From Terriglobia bacterium (lineage in GTDB: Bacteria > Acidobacteriota > Terriglobia > 20CM-2-55-15): 64,000 bases of DNA. Under the pieces are notes generated by a model, which was given only the letters and a program-made list of their open reading frames with translations, was not told the DNA's origin and did not search any database. The position numbers and the translations under genes were made by a program. This document shows, piece after piece, positions 1 to 4,944 of this stretch (positions within the stretch are counted from its first letter, which is position 1; each line of letters starts with the position of its first letter). Where the stretch lies: NCBI GenBank assembly GCA_965218585.1, contig CBDCLE010000019.1:32001-96000 (forward strand), in the 5' to 3' direction.

Positions 1-1589
1 CATCGGAAGCACGCGACACGGCTTCTGAACGACATTCTGAGGGGCGAACGGCCCCGACGGCAACCGCGCGGCCGGGTCCGTCGATACGGCCCCGCGGTGC
101 AGGCCGCCCTGATCGCGGCCTGGCGCACAGTCAATGATGTCTGTGGCAAACGGCTCGTTCCGTTTCTGCCGGAGCTGATCCCGACCATGGAGCGTCACGG
201 GCATCTGTCATTGTCTGATAAAACGCGGGCGGATCTGCTTGAGCTGAGCGCCGCCACGGCTGATCGGATCTTCCGTCAATTCCGATTCGATCATCGACCG
301 CACGGCAAGACCACCACCAAGTCCGGACAGTTACTCAAACACCGCGTTCCGATTCGCACATTCGCCGACTGGGCGGACACGCGGCCGGGATTCATGGAAG
401 CGGACTTGGTTGCACACTGCGGCGGGAACTCGGAAGGCCCTTTCCTCCACACCCTGGTACTGACCGACGTGGCGACCGGCTGGACCGAATGTCTGGCGTT
501 GCTACGGCGTACGGAGGCGGACATTCTGCAGGCGCTCACGACGGCACGGCAGATCCTTCCGTTTCAGCTTGTCGGCCTGGACACGGATAACGGTTCCGAG
601 TTCATGAACTACGGACTCCTCGCCTACTGCGAGCGTGAAACGATTCAATTCACCCGAGGCCGGGCGCGCCGGAAGAACGACCAGTGCTTCGTCGAACAGA
701 AGAACGGCTCGATCGTCCGCCAATTGGTCGGCTACGACCGCTACGAAGGCTCACTGGCATACAGGCAGCTTGCCGAGCTCTACCGAGTGGTCCGGCTCTA
801 CGTGAACTTCTTCCAGCCGTCCATGAAGCTCACGACGAAGACTCGCGATGGATCCCGGGTGACGAAACGCTACGATATCGCGCAAACACCCTATCAACGG
901 CTCTCGAATTCGGATGCGCTCGACCCGGAGGTTCGCGTTCGCCTTGCTGCGATTTATGAACGTTCGGATCCGGTCGATCTCCTACGACAGCTTGAGAAAC
1001 TCCAGGATGCATTCTGGAGACATGCGAAGGAACTGGCCTCTCCCACGCTAACGGACGACATCGTGCGCGCCGCCCTTGTGTCCCCGAACTGCGACGCAGA
1101 TGCAGACCGAGCCCCGATTGAGGCGGAACTCCCCGATCCCGGCTTCGAGCAACGAATCACGCGTCGGTATCGCAAAACACGGAAACAACCTGTGCCCCAC
1201 ATCTGGCGTACTCGCCCGGACCCGTTCGACGGCGTCTGGGAGGAGATGCGGTCATGGCTTGAATCCGATCCCGGGCGAACATCAAAGTCGCTGTTGCTTG
1301 AGCTTCAGCAGCGGCGCCCGGGACGTTACCCCAACGGTCAGTTACGGACCCTGCAGCGGCGCGTGCGCGAATGGCGGCGTCAGATTCTGGAGACTTTCGA
1401 TGGCGAGTGGCTCGAACTGGATCGGGTCCGCCCGGCTTCAGCATCTGCGGGCGACGGGGGCTGTGGAAAAGGCGGTCGCCCCACAGCCTCGACGGCGGGA
1501 AGAACTCTCCCGTTTGACCGGTCGTTCGGTAACATTTCTAATGAGGCAACAACCCTCAGTTCGGTAACATTTTTAAATGAGGCAATACG
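1..1589 (+). mobile_element. Right part of an ISNCY-like insertion sequence
   Basis: Transposase followed by two direct repeats GTTCGGTAACATTT..AATGAGGCAA (1524-1549, 1559-1585) ending ...GAGGCAATACG. Confidence 0.7.
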
Positions 1590-1616
1590 AGAAGGAATTC
1601 TGATTGACGTTGGACA

Positions 1617-2198
<582 letters not shown>

Positions 2199-2238
2199 GG
2201 CGATTACTCACTTCACACGCTCAAATCTGCATAGAGAT

Positions 2239-2287
2239 TTGCCACTAACTCCAGAAGCCCCTAGAATTATTACACTCTAGGGGCTTC
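2239..2287 (+). promoter_or_regulatory. Sigma70-type promoter of the tRNA, overlapped by a 12-bp inverted repeat
   Basis: TTGCCA(2239-2244)-17 bp-TAGAAT(2262-2267). IR GAAGCCCCTAGA(2254-2265)/TCTAGGGGCTTC(2276-2287). Confidence 0.7.
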
Positions 2288-2292
2288 ATTTT

Positions 2293-2378
2293 GGAGAGGT
2301 GGCTGAGAGGTTTAAAGCGGGTGACTTCTAATCACTTGTGGGCACAATCCACCGTGGGTTCGAATCCCACCCTCTCCT
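2293..2378 (+). tRNA. tRNA with serine-type body and long variable arm but anticodon TCT (Arg, AGA)
   Basis: Acceptor GGAGAGG/CCTCTCC. D-arm GCTG-AGAGGTTTA-AAGC. Anticodon arm GGTGA-CTTCTAA-TCACT (TCT at 2327-2329). Variable arm GTGGG-CACAA-TCCAC. T-arm GTGGG-TTCGAAT-CCCAC. Discriminator T, CCA not encoded. Confidence 0.92.
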
Positions 2379-2419
2379 CTAAGCTGCTCTCCCCAAATTC
2401 AATTTTAGTACGACTATCA

Positions 2420-3175
2420 TCACCGAAAGACTGTCATAGGGAAGGTCGAAAACATGAGGCCATCAAAGAATAATCCTATAGCACTTACCGGAGAATCACA
2501 GAACAATGTACCCCTCCTAATTATAAATTCATCCTCTGGAAGACTCAGTATCTCATCTATGAATAGAGTATGACTGCTCTTTGATCCAATAGAAAACTCA
2601 AAGAAGTATTCTTCTTTGTAGAATACTTCTATTGAGCAATTTGCATCTCTATTTTGGTCATTAGCAATTCCCACAGCCATACGCTGCCCAATCTCTACCC
2701 ACTGGTTAATCCACAATGTAAGAAATTCTCCTGGTTGGGAGGAAAAGACAGCTGCTATTCCATAGGGAAAATAGTTAGCGTCATAGAACCCATATTGTAT
2801 GAATGCTGCAACAGGAGCAGTACATTCCAAAGTAGCATATCCAGTCTCTATGTCACTACCAGCACCGGTAGTTCTTACCAACATATTTGGATTATTCTCT
2901 GGAAAAGTAAAAGCTGCCCCATCATCAATTATAGAGAATACCGGACTAGGAACAAGCCGATCTGAGCTTATCCCATAGAGAGTATAAGCACATCGAGGAT
3001 TGTTCGGATAGCTAGTATTGGTAAGGTATAAATGGGAGAAGAAGTGTGCCCCATCCCCAAACTCCCCATCTGCTATCACAGGAAATACATGATAGGTTTT
3101 GGATGTCTCATCTACGTTCTGTCCTAGCGCCGAAGCAGAAACCAACAGAAAAGATAACAAAGTTAGGAATTTCAT
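2420..3175 (-). CDS. Hypothetical secreted protein (transposon passenger)
   Basis: Intact ORF of about 251 aa. GGAG upstream of ATG 3175, signal peptide MKFLTLLSFLLVSASALG, four Cys. Confidence 0.75.
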   Translation of the reverse strand: MKFLTLLSFLLVSASALGQNVDETSKTYHVFPVIADGEFGDGAHFFSHLYLTNTSYPNNPRCAYTLYGISSDRLVPSPVFSIIDDGAAFTFPENNPNMLVRTTGAGSDIETGYATLECTAPVAAFIQYGFYDANYFPYGIAAVFSSQPGEFLTLWINQWVEIGQRMAVGIANDQNRDANCSIEVFYKEEYFFEFSIGSKSSHTLFIDEILSLPEDEFIIRRGTLFCDSPVSAIGLFFDGLMFSTFPMTVFR

Positions 3176-3361
3176 GGAAGGCTCCAATTGAAATCCTATG
3201 CTGAGGGAATGGTACAGAAGAAAGCTATCAGGTAAGATACCGTCTAGGCTAACTCTTCCTCAGCATAGGAGGGTTAGCTCAGAACCCGCTCGGTGACTGT
3301 AACACTGGGCGGGTTCGTCCCAATCCCCTCATAATATCACACATGAGGTTTGCTCAATGAC

Positions 3362-3390
3362 TTGACTTTCACGACAAATCGTGCTCTAAT
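3362..3390 (+). promoter_or_regulatory. Sigma70-type promoter upstream of the putative ncRNA
   Basis: TTGACT(3362-3367)-17 bp-TCTAAT(3385-3390) with a TG extended -10. CACGA/TCGTG palindrome in the spacer. Confidence 0.55.
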
Positions 3391-3405
3391 ACAAGCGGTG
3401 CGGTG

Positions 3406-3624
3406 CATGAATAGAATGAACCAGTCATATCACAAATTCTGAGAGAAAACAGCTCTCAGAAAAGGAGGTGCCATGTGAACGGATTTGGCGGACTACATGA
3501 ACCAACTCCTATAGTGTAGATGAGACGGACACAAGTGCAGGCATTTCTTAGGTTTGGTGGTTACTAATCAATGCCCTGTCCGCCTCATCAATCACCGAGA
3601 CATGACTGGTTCATTCTATTCATG
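3406..3624 (+). ncRNA. Putative structured non-coding RNA
   Basis: Perfect 23-bp terminal IR (3406-3428/3602-3624) encloses a short hairpin (3437-3461), AAAGGAGGTG-CC-ATG-TGA, and a long hairpin (3519-3589). No long ORF. Confidence 0.55.
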
Positions 3625-3714
3625 AATCCTACATAGCAAATTTTCCCCCTTGCAATTTTCGTCCTTCATGTGCTAAAATCAGGTATAGGAAACGACGTAA
3701 GGAGGAAAGAAAAA

Positions 3715-3936
3715 ATGCAAGTTGGACCATCTATCTTATTGCGTGAAATACCACCCGATGGGATTCGTCTGATTCTCCAAAGTACAAATCAACCCCACGA
3801 CATCCCAGGGAAACGTCTCCTTTCAAAAGCTGAGGCTGCTCTTTTAGCTTTTGGGCTTCTTCTGGAGTTAGGGCACACCACGGACAATCAGATTCTTGAT
3901 TCTTTTCATTGGGCTGAGAAATTTCTGCAGCAATAA
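3715..3936 (+). CDS. Small hypothetical protein (73 aa)
   Basis: Promoter TTGCAA-18 bp-TAAAAT (3650-3679), SD AAGGAGG, ATG at 3715. Confidence 0.6.
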   Translation: MQVGPSILLREIPPDGIRLILQSTNQPHDIPGKRLLSKAEAALLAFGLLLELGHTTDNQILDSFHWAEKFLQQ

Positions 3937-4009
3937 CCGAAGAGTGCGTCAAGTTAGTTGACATTTGCTTACCTCCAAGATAAGACGTTGGCAGTCAAGG
4001 AAAAGAGAA

Positions 4010-4228
4010 ATGCAATTCAGCATTGATCGCGTTCAAGGCTTAGTAAATAGAGTTGAACTTGCCGGATCGACTGGAAAGAACAAATTATTGTGCTTGAATT
4101 TTCACCTCGAACCACTACAGCTTCAGTATCTCCCCTTTCAACCTGAAGTCCTCCTTCTAATTGCACCCAACGAGGCACAGAAGCTATCCGACGATCTGCT
4201 AAAGCTTCTAATTCCGCATCAGAGGTAG
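4010..4228 (+). CDS. Small hypothetical protein (72 aa)
   Basis: TTGACA at 3958-3963, AAGGA upstream of ATG 4010. Stop codon abuts the right TIR. Confidence 0.55.
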   Translation: MQFSIDRVQGLVNRVELAGSTGKNKLLCLNFHLEPLQLQYLPFQPEVLLLIAPNEAQKLSDDLLKLLIPHQR

Positions 4229-4251
4229 AGCGTGTCAAGTGAGTAATCGCC

Positions 4252-4273
4252 GAATTTTCGTGTCGAGTTTCAT
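4252..4273 (-). pseudogene. sdhA: First seven codons of sdhA (MKLDTKI)
   Basis: ATG at 4273 just downstream of sdhC. Joins the 1617-2198 fragment in frame across the TSD. Confidence 0.85.
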
Positions 4274-4281
4274 CAGTTGAT

Positions 4282-4944
4282 TCAGCTCACTACGCCGATC
4301 AGCATGGCGATCGGGATGGATATGTAGCCCAGGACGATGAGGGAGCTGACGACGACCGATCCGTGCCGAATCAGCGGATCATATCTGGAGTGATTGAGGC
4401 CCAGGGACTGAAACATGCTCCAGATCCCATGTCCCATATGAAGTCCGAGGCTTCCCACGGCTGCTATATAAAATATCGCTACAGGCCACTCCTGGAATCC
4501 TGTGACTACGTTTCGATAAACACTTTCCGCGTTGAAGTTCGGGTACGACGGATGAACCGTGCCGAACGTAAAGTGCAATAGATGGTAAATCACGAAAAGT
4601 GCGATGATGGGCCCGCTCCAAACCATCGTGCGAGACGCGTAACTCGCGTCCCTGTATTTGTGGCGTTGGTAGGGCACAGGGCGGGCCGATCGGTTCCGAG
4701 TCGCAAGATGCACTGCGGCCAGGACGTGAAAGCCGACCGCGCTAACAAGGGAGATTCGGGCGGTCCAGAGGAACTGTGGCGTTCCCTTCAGCAGCTTTGC
4801 CCAAGCGTCGAGGGTTTCCGGACCTGCGAAGATCTGGAGATTTCCGGCCAGGTGCCCAATGATGAACCCGAAAAGGACAATGCCGGTCGCGACCACCACG
4901 ATCTTCTTGCCGAGGGATGAACGATAAAAGCCGGGAATCCACAT
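4282..4944 (-). CDS. sdhC: Succinate dehydrogenase cytochrome b subunit
   Basis: SSLGKK..ATG, GHLAGNL, YASRTM, HLLHFT, HMGHGIWSMFQSLG; five TM helices; upstream of sdhA. Confidence 0.9.
   Translation of the reverse strand: MWIPGFYRSSLGKKIVVVATGIVLFGFIIGHLAGNLQIFAGPETLDAWAKLLKGTPQFLWTARISLVSAVGFHVLAAVHLATRNRSARPVPYQRHKYRDASYASRTMVWSGPIIALFVIYHLLHFTFGTVHPSYPNFNAESVYRNVVTGFQEWPVAIFYIAAVGSLGLHMGHGIWSMFQSLGLNHSRYDPLIRHGSVVVSSLIVLGYISIPIAMLIGVVS

Follow-up and report, generated by a model that had tools for sequence, protein, structure and literature searches.

The window analyzed here, a stretch of 64,000 nucleotides (nt) from the genome of a Terriglobia bacterium (assembly GCA_965218585.1, contig CBDCLE010000019.1, positions 32,001 to 96,000 of the forward strand), contains sdhC (4282-4944; Pfam Sdh_cyt) and, downstream of it on the minus strand, an sdhA gene that is broken approximately seven codons after its start. 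At the break lies an AT-rich insertion of 2053 bp (window 2199-4251) with a transfer RNA (tRNA) gene, a gene for a secreted protein, a highly structured non-coding stretch, and two small open reading frames (ORFs). The evidence below suggests that the insertion is a non-autonomous relative of insertion sequences (ISs) of the IS1595 family, and that its tRNA combines a serine-type body with an arginine anticodon. The coordinates of the features are given in Table 1.

Boundaries of the insertion and kinship of its ends

The two ends of the insertion are inverted copies of a 24-nt sequence with a single mismatch, at position 16 of the end. Window 2191-2222 reads GAATTTTCGGCGATTACTCACTTCACACGCTC, the first eight letters being the duplication and the other 24 the left end, and its reverse complement is found at 4228-4259 with one mismatch. 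The target-site duplication is perfect and has A or T at 6 of its 8 positions. By our own arithmetic, far fewer than one occurrence of such ends with an exact 8-bp edge repeat would be expected by chance in the 64-kb window. The element has a GC content of 0.435, whereas its flanks range over 0.55-0.64 and the genome's other IS1595-type elements over 0.52-0.54; its low GC suggests a recent origin elsewhere.

Orthologous sdhA genes were found in three of four congeneric genomes (87-88% identity), the fourth (G004) being without a match. In all three, the site is empty: the 8-mer occurs once, uninterrupted, and is followed by the sdhA start and sdhC. These empty sites are the best proof of a transposition event, and they support the gain of the element in this lineage after its split from the three site-holding congeners. 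An earlier note on this DNA had described a precisely bounded, AT-rich insertion of this length with 24-bp terminal inverted repeats (one mismatch) and an intact 8-bp target-site duplication, and had considered it recently mobilised. The former description is borne out by the sequence together with the three empty sites, and the empty sites agree with the latter in that they place the gain after the split. The parts that the earlier note listed (tRNA, secreted protein, structured stretch, a Shine-Dalgarno sequence followed by ATG and TGA, and two ORFs) are each present as described.

The junctions were also sought in four metagenome runs, which are DNA-like contig sets of one study and probably the source of the assembly. 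In three of these runs, contigs cross a junction (left: X1 and X2; right: X3), so the join is not an artefact of one assembly. No contig spanning an empty site was found among the four runs, at a depth of 2-7 at which a mixed population is still possible.

The genome contains 18 matches to PF12762, nine of which span nearly the whole domain. From inverted repeats around the PF12762 transposase genes, three resident IS1595 element types (A, B, and C) were located, with transposases that match DDE_Tnp_IS1595 and Zn_ribbon_IS1595 in Pfam. All three types carry passenger genes, and ARAGORN found no tRNA in any of them. Elements B and C have perfect duplications; in the best-preserved copy of element A (C2:345671-349741) 7 of the 8 positions agree, and the remaining copies have unlike flanks. 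Over 18 positions, the ends of the insertion match those of element C at 14-15, those of A at 13, and those of B at 11-12. Among 200000 random GG-starting 18-mers of the genome used as a control, 32 reached 13 matches and none reached 15. The insertion thus has terminal repeats related to those of C and A and an AT-rich 8-bp duplication, and the IS1595-type assignment proposed earlier is supported by this likeness to resident elements that encode PF12762 and leave AT-rich duplications of 8 bp.

The insertion lacks a DDE transposase of its own (PF12762 with the PF12760 zinc ribbon). No transposase was recognized by Pfam in the cargo ORFs, and a tblastn search of the element with the three resident IS1595 transposases returned a best E-value of 0.09, in agreement with the earlier statement that no transposase is encoded. 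Given IS1595-like ends and neither a transposase nor a remnant of one, the insertion can be regarded as a non-autonomous IS1595-type cassette. Its IS-type ends, which surround genes unrelated to transposition in the absence of a transposase, are those of a mobile insertion cassette. A miniature inverted-repeat transposable element (MITE) was considered and rejected: MITEs are small, non-coding, and usually multicopy, whereas the cassette is 2053 bp long, holds a conserved 251-aa gene and a tRNA, and is present once.

Excision was simulated by scripted removal of the element and one 8-mer, which yields an open sdhA start that continues in frame, without a stop, into ORF 1556-2086. The earlier suggestion that excision restores sdhA is thus correct for the start of the gene and fails for the gene as a whole: an rve-type IS still interrupts it at position ~1573, and the remainder of sdhA is not adjacent. 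This second IS, which encodes an integrase-core transposase of the rve type (ORF 97-1845), occupies window 1-1573 and extends left of the window. The genome has five copies of it, counted by its right end, and metagenome depth is tens of times higher over it than over the flanks.

Several observations concern the resident elements themselves. Element B carries a two-gene candidate anti-phage pair (locus L180), in which one gene encodes an AbiLi-like AAA_15/AAA_21 ATPase (PADLOC PDC-M38A, E = 8.9e-74) and the other a DUF3226 protein (PDC-M38B, E = 3e-46). Element A is present in three copies (G000:C2:289964-292661, 345671-349741, and 534053-538123), with a DUF2513 protein, a DUF4410 lipoprotein-like protein, and a membrane protein as passengers and a nested transposase gene in two of the copies. 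The 8-mers that flank copies 1 and 3 appear swapped, as expected from an inversion between copies.

Table 1. Positions of the cassette, its parts, and the sdhA remnant in the window, followed by the resident IS1595 elements in the genome.
Feature	Position	Strand	Basis and remarks
sdhA remnant downstream of the insertion	1574..2198	-	About seven start codons at 4252-4273; cut at ~1573 by the rve-type IS
Left target-site duplication copy, 8 bp	2191..2198	.	Same as 4252-4259; single at the empty site in 3/3 gene-holding congeners
Left terminal inverted repeat, 24 nt	2199..2222	+	23/24 complementary to 4228-4251; 14/18 to element C ends, 13/18 to A
Sigma-70-like promoter upstream of the tRNA	2239..2267	+	Consensus match 10/12, 17-nt spacer, two scans
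Perfect 12-bp inverted repeat, 10-nt spacer	2254..2287	.	Overlaps the -10 hexamer and expected start; then a run of four T
tRNA, canonical 7/5 cloverleaf, long variable arm, anticodon UCU, U73, no encoded CCA	2293..2378	+	ARAGORN; Rfam tRNA
Secreted 251-aa protein gene, two beta-sandwich halves	2420..3175	-	45% identity to P0002; profile search; AlphaFold 2
Highly structured non-coding stretch, ~450 nt	3185..3640	.	Fold z-scores against shuffled sequence
Sigma-70-like promoter with TG extension, upstream of ORF1	3650..3679	+	Consensus match, two scans
ORF1, 73 aa, orphan	3715..3936	+	AGGAGG ahead; self-hit only
ORF2, 72 aa, orphan	4010..4228	+	Stop codon abuts the right end; self-hit only
Right terminal inverted repeat, 24 nt	4228..4251	-	15/18 to element C ends
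Right target-site duplication copy, 8 bp	4252..4259	.	Perfect copy of 2191-2198
Element A	C2:289964-292661		Further copies, longer, with nested IS
Element B	G000:C8:49265-52305		3041 bp; perfect 8-bp duplication
Element C	C25:137652-139761		Ends GGTGATTATACACTTGACGAACC; perfect 8-bp duplication

The tRNA and the other cargo

The cassette tRNA scores 62.1 bits in Rfam, against a cut-off of 29 bits, and ARAGORN agrees on a tRNA with anticodon UCU. All stems are paired (acceptor 7 bp, T 5 bp, D 3 bp, and variable 5 bp), and the T loop is canonical (ARAGORN, Infernal). Among the host tRNAs it comes closest to three serine species, with anticodons CGA (80%), GCU (76%), and GGA (71%). It shares with tRNA-Ser(CGA) an identical T arm and 7-bp acceptor stem, the variable arm is comparable, and the serine identity elements G1-C72, G2-C71, A3-U70, and C11-G24 are kept. 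The anticodon loop, CTTCTAA, differs from the CTGCTAA of host tRNA-Ser(GCU) by one base (G34 to U). The discriminator is U73, compared with G73 in all four canonical host tRNA-Ser genes, and position 20 is U rather than A. The earlier description of a mismatched tRNA therefore holds: ARAGORN, Rfam, and the alignments to host tRNAs agree on a serine-type body with an arginine anticodon.

Seryl-tRNA synthetase (SerRS) recognizes the long arm and the acceptor and not the anticodon, and arginyl-tRNA synthetase (ArgRS) requires A20 and C35. Under these recognition rules, serine would be the likeliest charge, with U73 as a weakening feature, and the tRNA would decode AGA and AGG. A second SerRS able to read U73 was not found in the genome, which has a single Seryl_tRNA_N match; the SerRS gene is on G000:C1, near 4582-4890. 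In a crude count over long open frames, the host uses AGA and AGG together at ~11 per 1000 codons. That the tRNA is expressed, charged with serine, and used appears to us a serious prospect that falls somewhat short of even.

Three class assignments of the tRNA were rejected. A canonical tRNA-Ser is contradicted by the anticodon, UCU instead of NGA or GCU, and by U73 instead of G73; a canonical tRNA-Arg(UCU) is contradicted by the length of about 87 nt, the long variable arm, and U20. The tRNA-Arg(UCU) native to the host (C24:1345) is a standard tRNA of 74 nt with a short variable loop, and it shares nothing with the cassette tRNA. The remaining candidates are the allo-tRNAs of Acidobacteria, which are serine-type tRNAs with non-serine anticodons and a 12-bp acceptor branch of the 8/4 or 9/3 type (Mukai et al. 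2017; PMC5389517). The cassette tRNA does have the serine body, the long arm, and the non-serine anticodon of this group, G73 excepted. Its acceptor stem of 7 bp and T stem of 5 bp (Infernal, ARAGORN) are neither 8/4 nor 9/3, and, as we read the sequence, neither position 8 nor position 9 can pair with the 3' side; because such an acceptor branch is absent, the tRNA lies outside the allo-tRNA family.

Two other odd long-arm tRNAs were observed in the genome. One, at G000:C4:105179-105271 (L168), has 93 nt, an 8-bp acceptor stem, anticodon UAG, and U73, and the other, at G000:C22:178573-178661 (L169), has 89 nt, anticodon UGC, C at position 33, and U73. Each adjoins an IS1-like transposase gene, and the one on C4 lies beside a small ORF resembling a ribbon-helix-helix antitoxin. 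They were considered as IS1-like cargo and rejected as such, as a second copy of the IS on C7 shares sequence only from just past the tRNA, which places the tRNAs outside the IS.

The promoter candidate of the cassette tRNA ends 26 nt upstream of the gene. Within the element, three sites in total reach the sigma-70 consensus, and 3.9 +/- 2.1 are found in shuffled sequence, i.e., there is no excess. Of the five promoters claimed earlier, those ahead of the tRNA (2239-2267) and ORF1 (3650-3679) hold at the level of this consensus, whereas the others do not reach it. The 12-bp palindrome that overlaps the tRNA promoter could be an operator or a terminator of read-in transcription. A perfect 13-nt inverted match was also observed between the spacer of the tRNA promoter (2245-2257) and the interior of ORF1 (3859-3871); by our estimate, ~0.03 such matches would be expected by chance in 2 kb.

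The non-coding stretch between the secreted-protein gene and ORF1 contains hairpins at 3194-3270 and 3282-3316, followed by a 26-nt inverted repeat (3406-3431 and 3599-3624) that encloses three further hairpins and the Shine-Dalgarno-ATG-TGA sequence (3463-3478). Its fold z-scores on the plus and minus strands are -4.3 and -4.8 at 3185-3400, and -7.3 and -8.7 at 3395-3640, whereas those of the ORF1 and ORF2 stretches are near 0. No Rfam family matched the stretch at E<=5. A retron non-coding RNA at 3406-3624, to which the 26-nt flanking repeats and the long internal hairpin could have pointed, was rejected, as there is neither a reverse transcriptase (the ORFs downstream are of 73 and 72 aa) nor an Rfam match. 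A nested MITE was rejected on the lack of a flanking duplication and of another genomic copy, and a second tRNA-like gene at 3271-3330 was recognized by neither ARAGORN nor Rfam.

The 251-aa minus-strand ORF is, judging by its conserved sequence, a real gene. A profile search with the protein returned 558 representative clusters at E<=1e-3, 114 of them at E<=1e-30, and matches occur in 22 of 401 genomes of the phylum, counting its own; one of these is a weak match in the unpublished genome G106. In relatives, the domain is a module of larger secreted proteins, located ahead of repeated domains in G192 and behind a metalloprotease-like region in G074. An AlphaFold 2 model from 28 aligned sequences, with a mean predicted local distance difference test (pLDDT) of 89.9, has an N-terminal helix at residues 2-16 and two beta-sandwich halves; a previous model from 2 sequences (pLDDT 53.9) was discarded. 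Each half of this model resembles both TM1070 and the transducer of Anabaena sensory rhodopsin, at a probability of 1.0 and with target TM-scores of 0.62-0.74. The protein is thus a member of a large, uncharacterised, and widespread extracellular domain family, and nothing ties it to translation. A GC-richer paralogue of the beta-sandwich domain was noted in the genome at G000:C25:1315-1983 (profile E = 2.8e-21).

The codons of this gene were compared with the aligned columns of its relatives. At its four AGR (AGA or AGG) codons, Ser is found in 13, 18, 5, and 22% of the sequences (background 9.4%) and Arg is rare, a pattern that comes from four codons, too few to build on, and also fits ordinary variable positions. 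At three CGN codons, Arg is found in 17, 60, and 41%; the fourth, encoding the last residue, is unaligned.

For ORF1 and ORF2, a word-index search of 5.8 billion proteins retrieved nothing but the ORFs themselves, and neither a family nor a usable atlas look-alike was found for either. The atlas recognition of ORF2 is low (1042), like that of shuffled sequence, and ORF2 may not be a real gene. Paralogy of the two was rejected, as no protein alignment was obtained at E<=100 and the DNA alignment was unconvincing. An 18-nt stretch at 3941-3958 matches the inner right end at 15 of 18 positions, possibly by chance. Defence, toxin-antitoxin, and phage families were searched for among the five ORFs, with no PADLOC match at E<=1 and no match of note in Pfam, NCBIfam, or PHROGs.

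Occurrence elsewhere and comparison with known systems

If the cargo were a coordinated unit, its parts might be expected to travel together. At nine loci of secreted-protein homologues, examined with 1.5 kb of flank on each side, neither the tRNA nor an IS1595-type end was found in any case. A search of 60 related genomes with the whole element gave matches confined to positions 90-199 of the query, i.e., the tRNA and its immediate flanks. Plasmids gave no match, and in phages only tRNA-Ser of Rhizobium phages was matched (76.7% over 85 nt). Patterns for the D-arm and anticodon of the tRNA and for a hairpin arm each had no match in viral contigs, and no relative of the secreted protein was confirmed in viral or metagenome contigs. 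A long-arm UCU tRNA pattern matched in 4 of 400 other genomes of the phylum, compared with 3 matches of a control, and in none of 34 other genomes of the family; of these matches only the one in G332 is a tRNA by ARAGORN. The earlier proposal of an RNA-centred module acting on translation gained no support from these comparisons: co-occurrence was seen at 0/9 loci, the element has no DNA relatives in the 60 genomes beyond the tRNA region, the secreted protein belongs to a widespread extracellular family, and the ORFs are orphans without a defence, toxin-antitoxin, or phage match.

The tRNA in G332, a genome of the same phylum, resembles the cassette tRNA in its UCU anticodon, long variable arm, and mobile setting. 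It stands in a tandem of long-arm tRNAs 14 nt apart (87 nt UCU and 86 nt UGA; G332:C42:198713-198898, L167, 1469-1654) beside a serine recombinase gene. The two differ in that the sequences are unrelated, and the G332 tRNA has G73, is paired with the odd tRNA(UGA), and has no IS1595-type ends in sight.

Transporter ISs of the IS1595 family are credited to Siguier, Gagnevin and Chandler (2009), as cited in PMC3129680 and PMC12561309. Like these elements, including residents A, B, and C, the cassette has GG-starting ends (13-15 of 18 positions shared with resident elements), an AT-rich 8-bp duplication, and passengers; it differs in having no transposase or trace of one, a much lower GC content, and a tRNA as cargo, which A, B, and C lack. 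Both transporter ISs, with their passenger genes, and mobile insertion cassettes, which have no transposase, have been described as classes (PMC3129680), and AT-rich 8-bp repeats are reported for an IS1595-family IS (PMC12561309). One such mobile insertion cassette is MIC231 of Bacillus cereus, which likewise has IS-type inverted ends around genes unrelated to transposition and no transposase (PMC3129680). Without a transposase of its own, a cassette of this kind would depend for movement on a related IS in the same cell. The present cassette differs from MIC231 in belonging to IS1595 and not IS231/IS4, being single copy, having no cognate IS with identical ends that we could find, and carrying a tRNA and a structured RNA.

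For the tRNA, a close described parallel is again the allo-tRNAs. Allo-tRNAs with anticodons for AGA/AGG are reported to have inserted serine in Escherichia coli and to adjoin transposon and toxin-antitoxin genes (PMC5389517; PMC7609411). With these the cassette tRNA shares the long variable arm, serine identity elements, a non-serine anticodon (the 9/3 ones including AGA/AGG), and a transposon association; it differs in its 7/5 structure, its U73, and its position inside a bounded transposon rather than near one. Among tRNA-Ser forms with a changed anticodon, tRNA-Ser(CAG) of CUG-clade yeasts and the variants of human or engineered origin are still charged by SerRS, with mis-decoding of a sense codon, and G33 is a built-in damping feature of one natural mistranslating tRNA-Ser (PMC11415595). 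By analogy, U73 might have a damping role akin to that of G33. Those tRNAs are chromosomal, eukaryotic, or engineered, unlike the cassette tRNA, which is bacterial, transposon-borne, and a candidate decoder.

The earlier assertion that no equivalent had been described was too strong in light of these sources, since mobile insertion cassettes and transporter ISs (PMC3129680) and mismatched serine-type tRNAs near transposons (PMC5389517) are on record. An IS-derived cassette with a tRNA passenger was not found in the open-access literature, which is not proof of its absence. Thus, the kinds of component are known and their combination is new.

Interpretation and significance

The reading that we favor, with fair though limited confidence, is that the insertion belongs to the IS1595 lineage as a non-autonomous element, i.e., a mobile insertion cassette or a transporter IS without its transposase, which was moved in trans and carries passenger cargo together with a serine-type tRNA(UCU). 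An IS1595-type DDE transposase supplied in trans would have recognized both 24-nt ends and inserted the cassette into the AT-rich 8-mer about seven codons into sdhA, duplicating the 8-mer, presumably after the split from the three site-holding congeners. The transposase could have come from a resident element with similar ends or from a partner since lost. The cargo would be passenger DNA that came from a source of lower GC, one probably belonging to the same phylum, and a coordinated system is not implied. If expressed and charged, the tRNA would insert serine at AGA and AGG in competition with the host tRNA-Arg(UCU), because SerRS does not read the anticodon, and the replacement of G73 by U73 would probably weaken this charging.

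Several points weigh against this reading. The element is present once in the genome, and its ends depart from those of the nearest resident element at 3 of the first 18 positions, which leaves that element a candidate for the mobilisation. Patterns of 20-21 nt from the ends had no match in contigs of JGI metagenomes or in viral contigs. With up to 2 mismatches allowed, the end pattern matched once in 400 genomes of the class (G562, intergenic, no transposase nearby), and as a control pattern also matched once this was judged to be chance. A 15-nt end pattern gave at least 119 matches in genome contigs, and when these were extended to 40 nt no more than 13 of the 25 added positions agreed, which is the chance level. 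The search for other copies and for the partner transposase that the earlier note had proposed therefore ended without a same-end element in the genome, the 400 class genomes, or the JGI metagenome and viral contigs. As to the tRNA, U73 in place of the host's G73 may prevent charging altogether, a freely expressed decoder of Arg codons as Ser should affect ~11 codons per 1000 in the host and be harmful, and no close relatives of the tRNA were found from which selection on it could be read, its expression being a prediction.

One alternative to a mobile cassette is an assembly or binning artefact, in which foreign AT-rich DNA was misjoined into the contig. The assembly is in 26 contigs with an estimated contamination of 3.3%, and the composition of the element is sharply unlike that of its flanks; against this stand the exact ends, the exact duplication of an 8-bp site that is single in three congeners, and the junctions bridged in separate contigs of three runs, and we consider a misjoin extremely improbable. 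Much more deserving of attention, though still doubtful, is that the cargo is an inert, hitch-hiking chromosomal fragment of a lower-GC relative between IS1595 ends, and that its tRNA is a recently disabled tRNA-Ser(GCU) (G34U, G73U), uncharged or unused. The anticodon loop is indeed one base from that of Ser(GCU), an identity element for SerRS is lost with U73, the secreted protein is nothing unusual within a family found across the phylum, the parts were not found together at the homologue loci, and sdhA is dead in any case; some irregular acidobacterial tRNAs were charged but unused, or inactive, in E. coli (PMC5389517). Random decay would not, however, be expected to place both changes at identity-bearing positions while leaving stems and conserved loop bases intact, and the near-consensus promoter of the tRNA is kept. 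The other two long-arm tRNAs with non-serine anticodons in the genome also have U73, a hint of a shared, tolerated class over three accidents.

At the opposite extreme, the cassette could be one functional, RNA-centred module, with a regulated missense tRNA as effector, controlled by the structured RNA and the small proteins, and serving addiction, anti-phage defence, or programmed mistranslation, e.g., the poisoning of AT-rich invaders rich in AGA/AGG. This would suit the strongest promoter match, which precedes the tRNA and is overlapped by the perfect 12-bp palindrome as a possible operator, as well as the exceptional structure of the 450-nt stretch, the low host use of AGA and AGG, and the Arg-rare, Ser-containing columns (5-22%) at the four AGR codons in the gene of the secreted protein; another element of IS1595 type in this genome also holds the candidate defence pair PDC-M38A/B, and allo-tRNAs adjoin toxin-antitoxin genes (PMC5389517). 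However, the cargo proteins have no PADLOC, PHROGs, Pfam, or NCBIfam match, ORF1 and ORF2 are orphans and ORF2 scores as shuffled sequence, the secreted protein comes from an extracellular family with no link to translation, and neither the tRNA nor such ends occur at any of the nine homologue loci. The AGR pattern fits ordinary variable surface positions equally well, and only two of the five claimed promoters reach the consensus. We therefore regard a single module as unlikely. Its most specific form is quite unlikely: the cassette would spread a switchable, serine-charging tRNA(UCU) that re-reads AGA/AGG, codons rare in a GC-rich host and common in AT-rich invaders, as a mobile mis-decoding weapon or addiction device, with the palindrome, the 450-nt RNA, and the orphan proteins as controls and with its own AGR codons at serine-tolerant positions.

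To our knowledge, natural bacterial tRNAs in which body and anticodon disagree are rare, and no one knows what they are for. The cassette tRNA is of the cleanest kind for testing, with a canonical cloverleaf, a serine body, and an arginine anticodon on a clonable 2-kb element for which empty-site relatives exist. If the tRNA is inert, the insertion amounts to an ordinary non-autonomous derivative of IS1595 whose cargo is odd, and it still extends the idea of mobile insertion cassettes to the IS1595 family and to RNA-gene passengers. If the tRNA is charged with serine, the re-reading of a sense codon can travel between genomes on a simple transposon, which would bear on the origins of genetic-code change and on mis-decoding in the conflict between hosts and mobile DNA.

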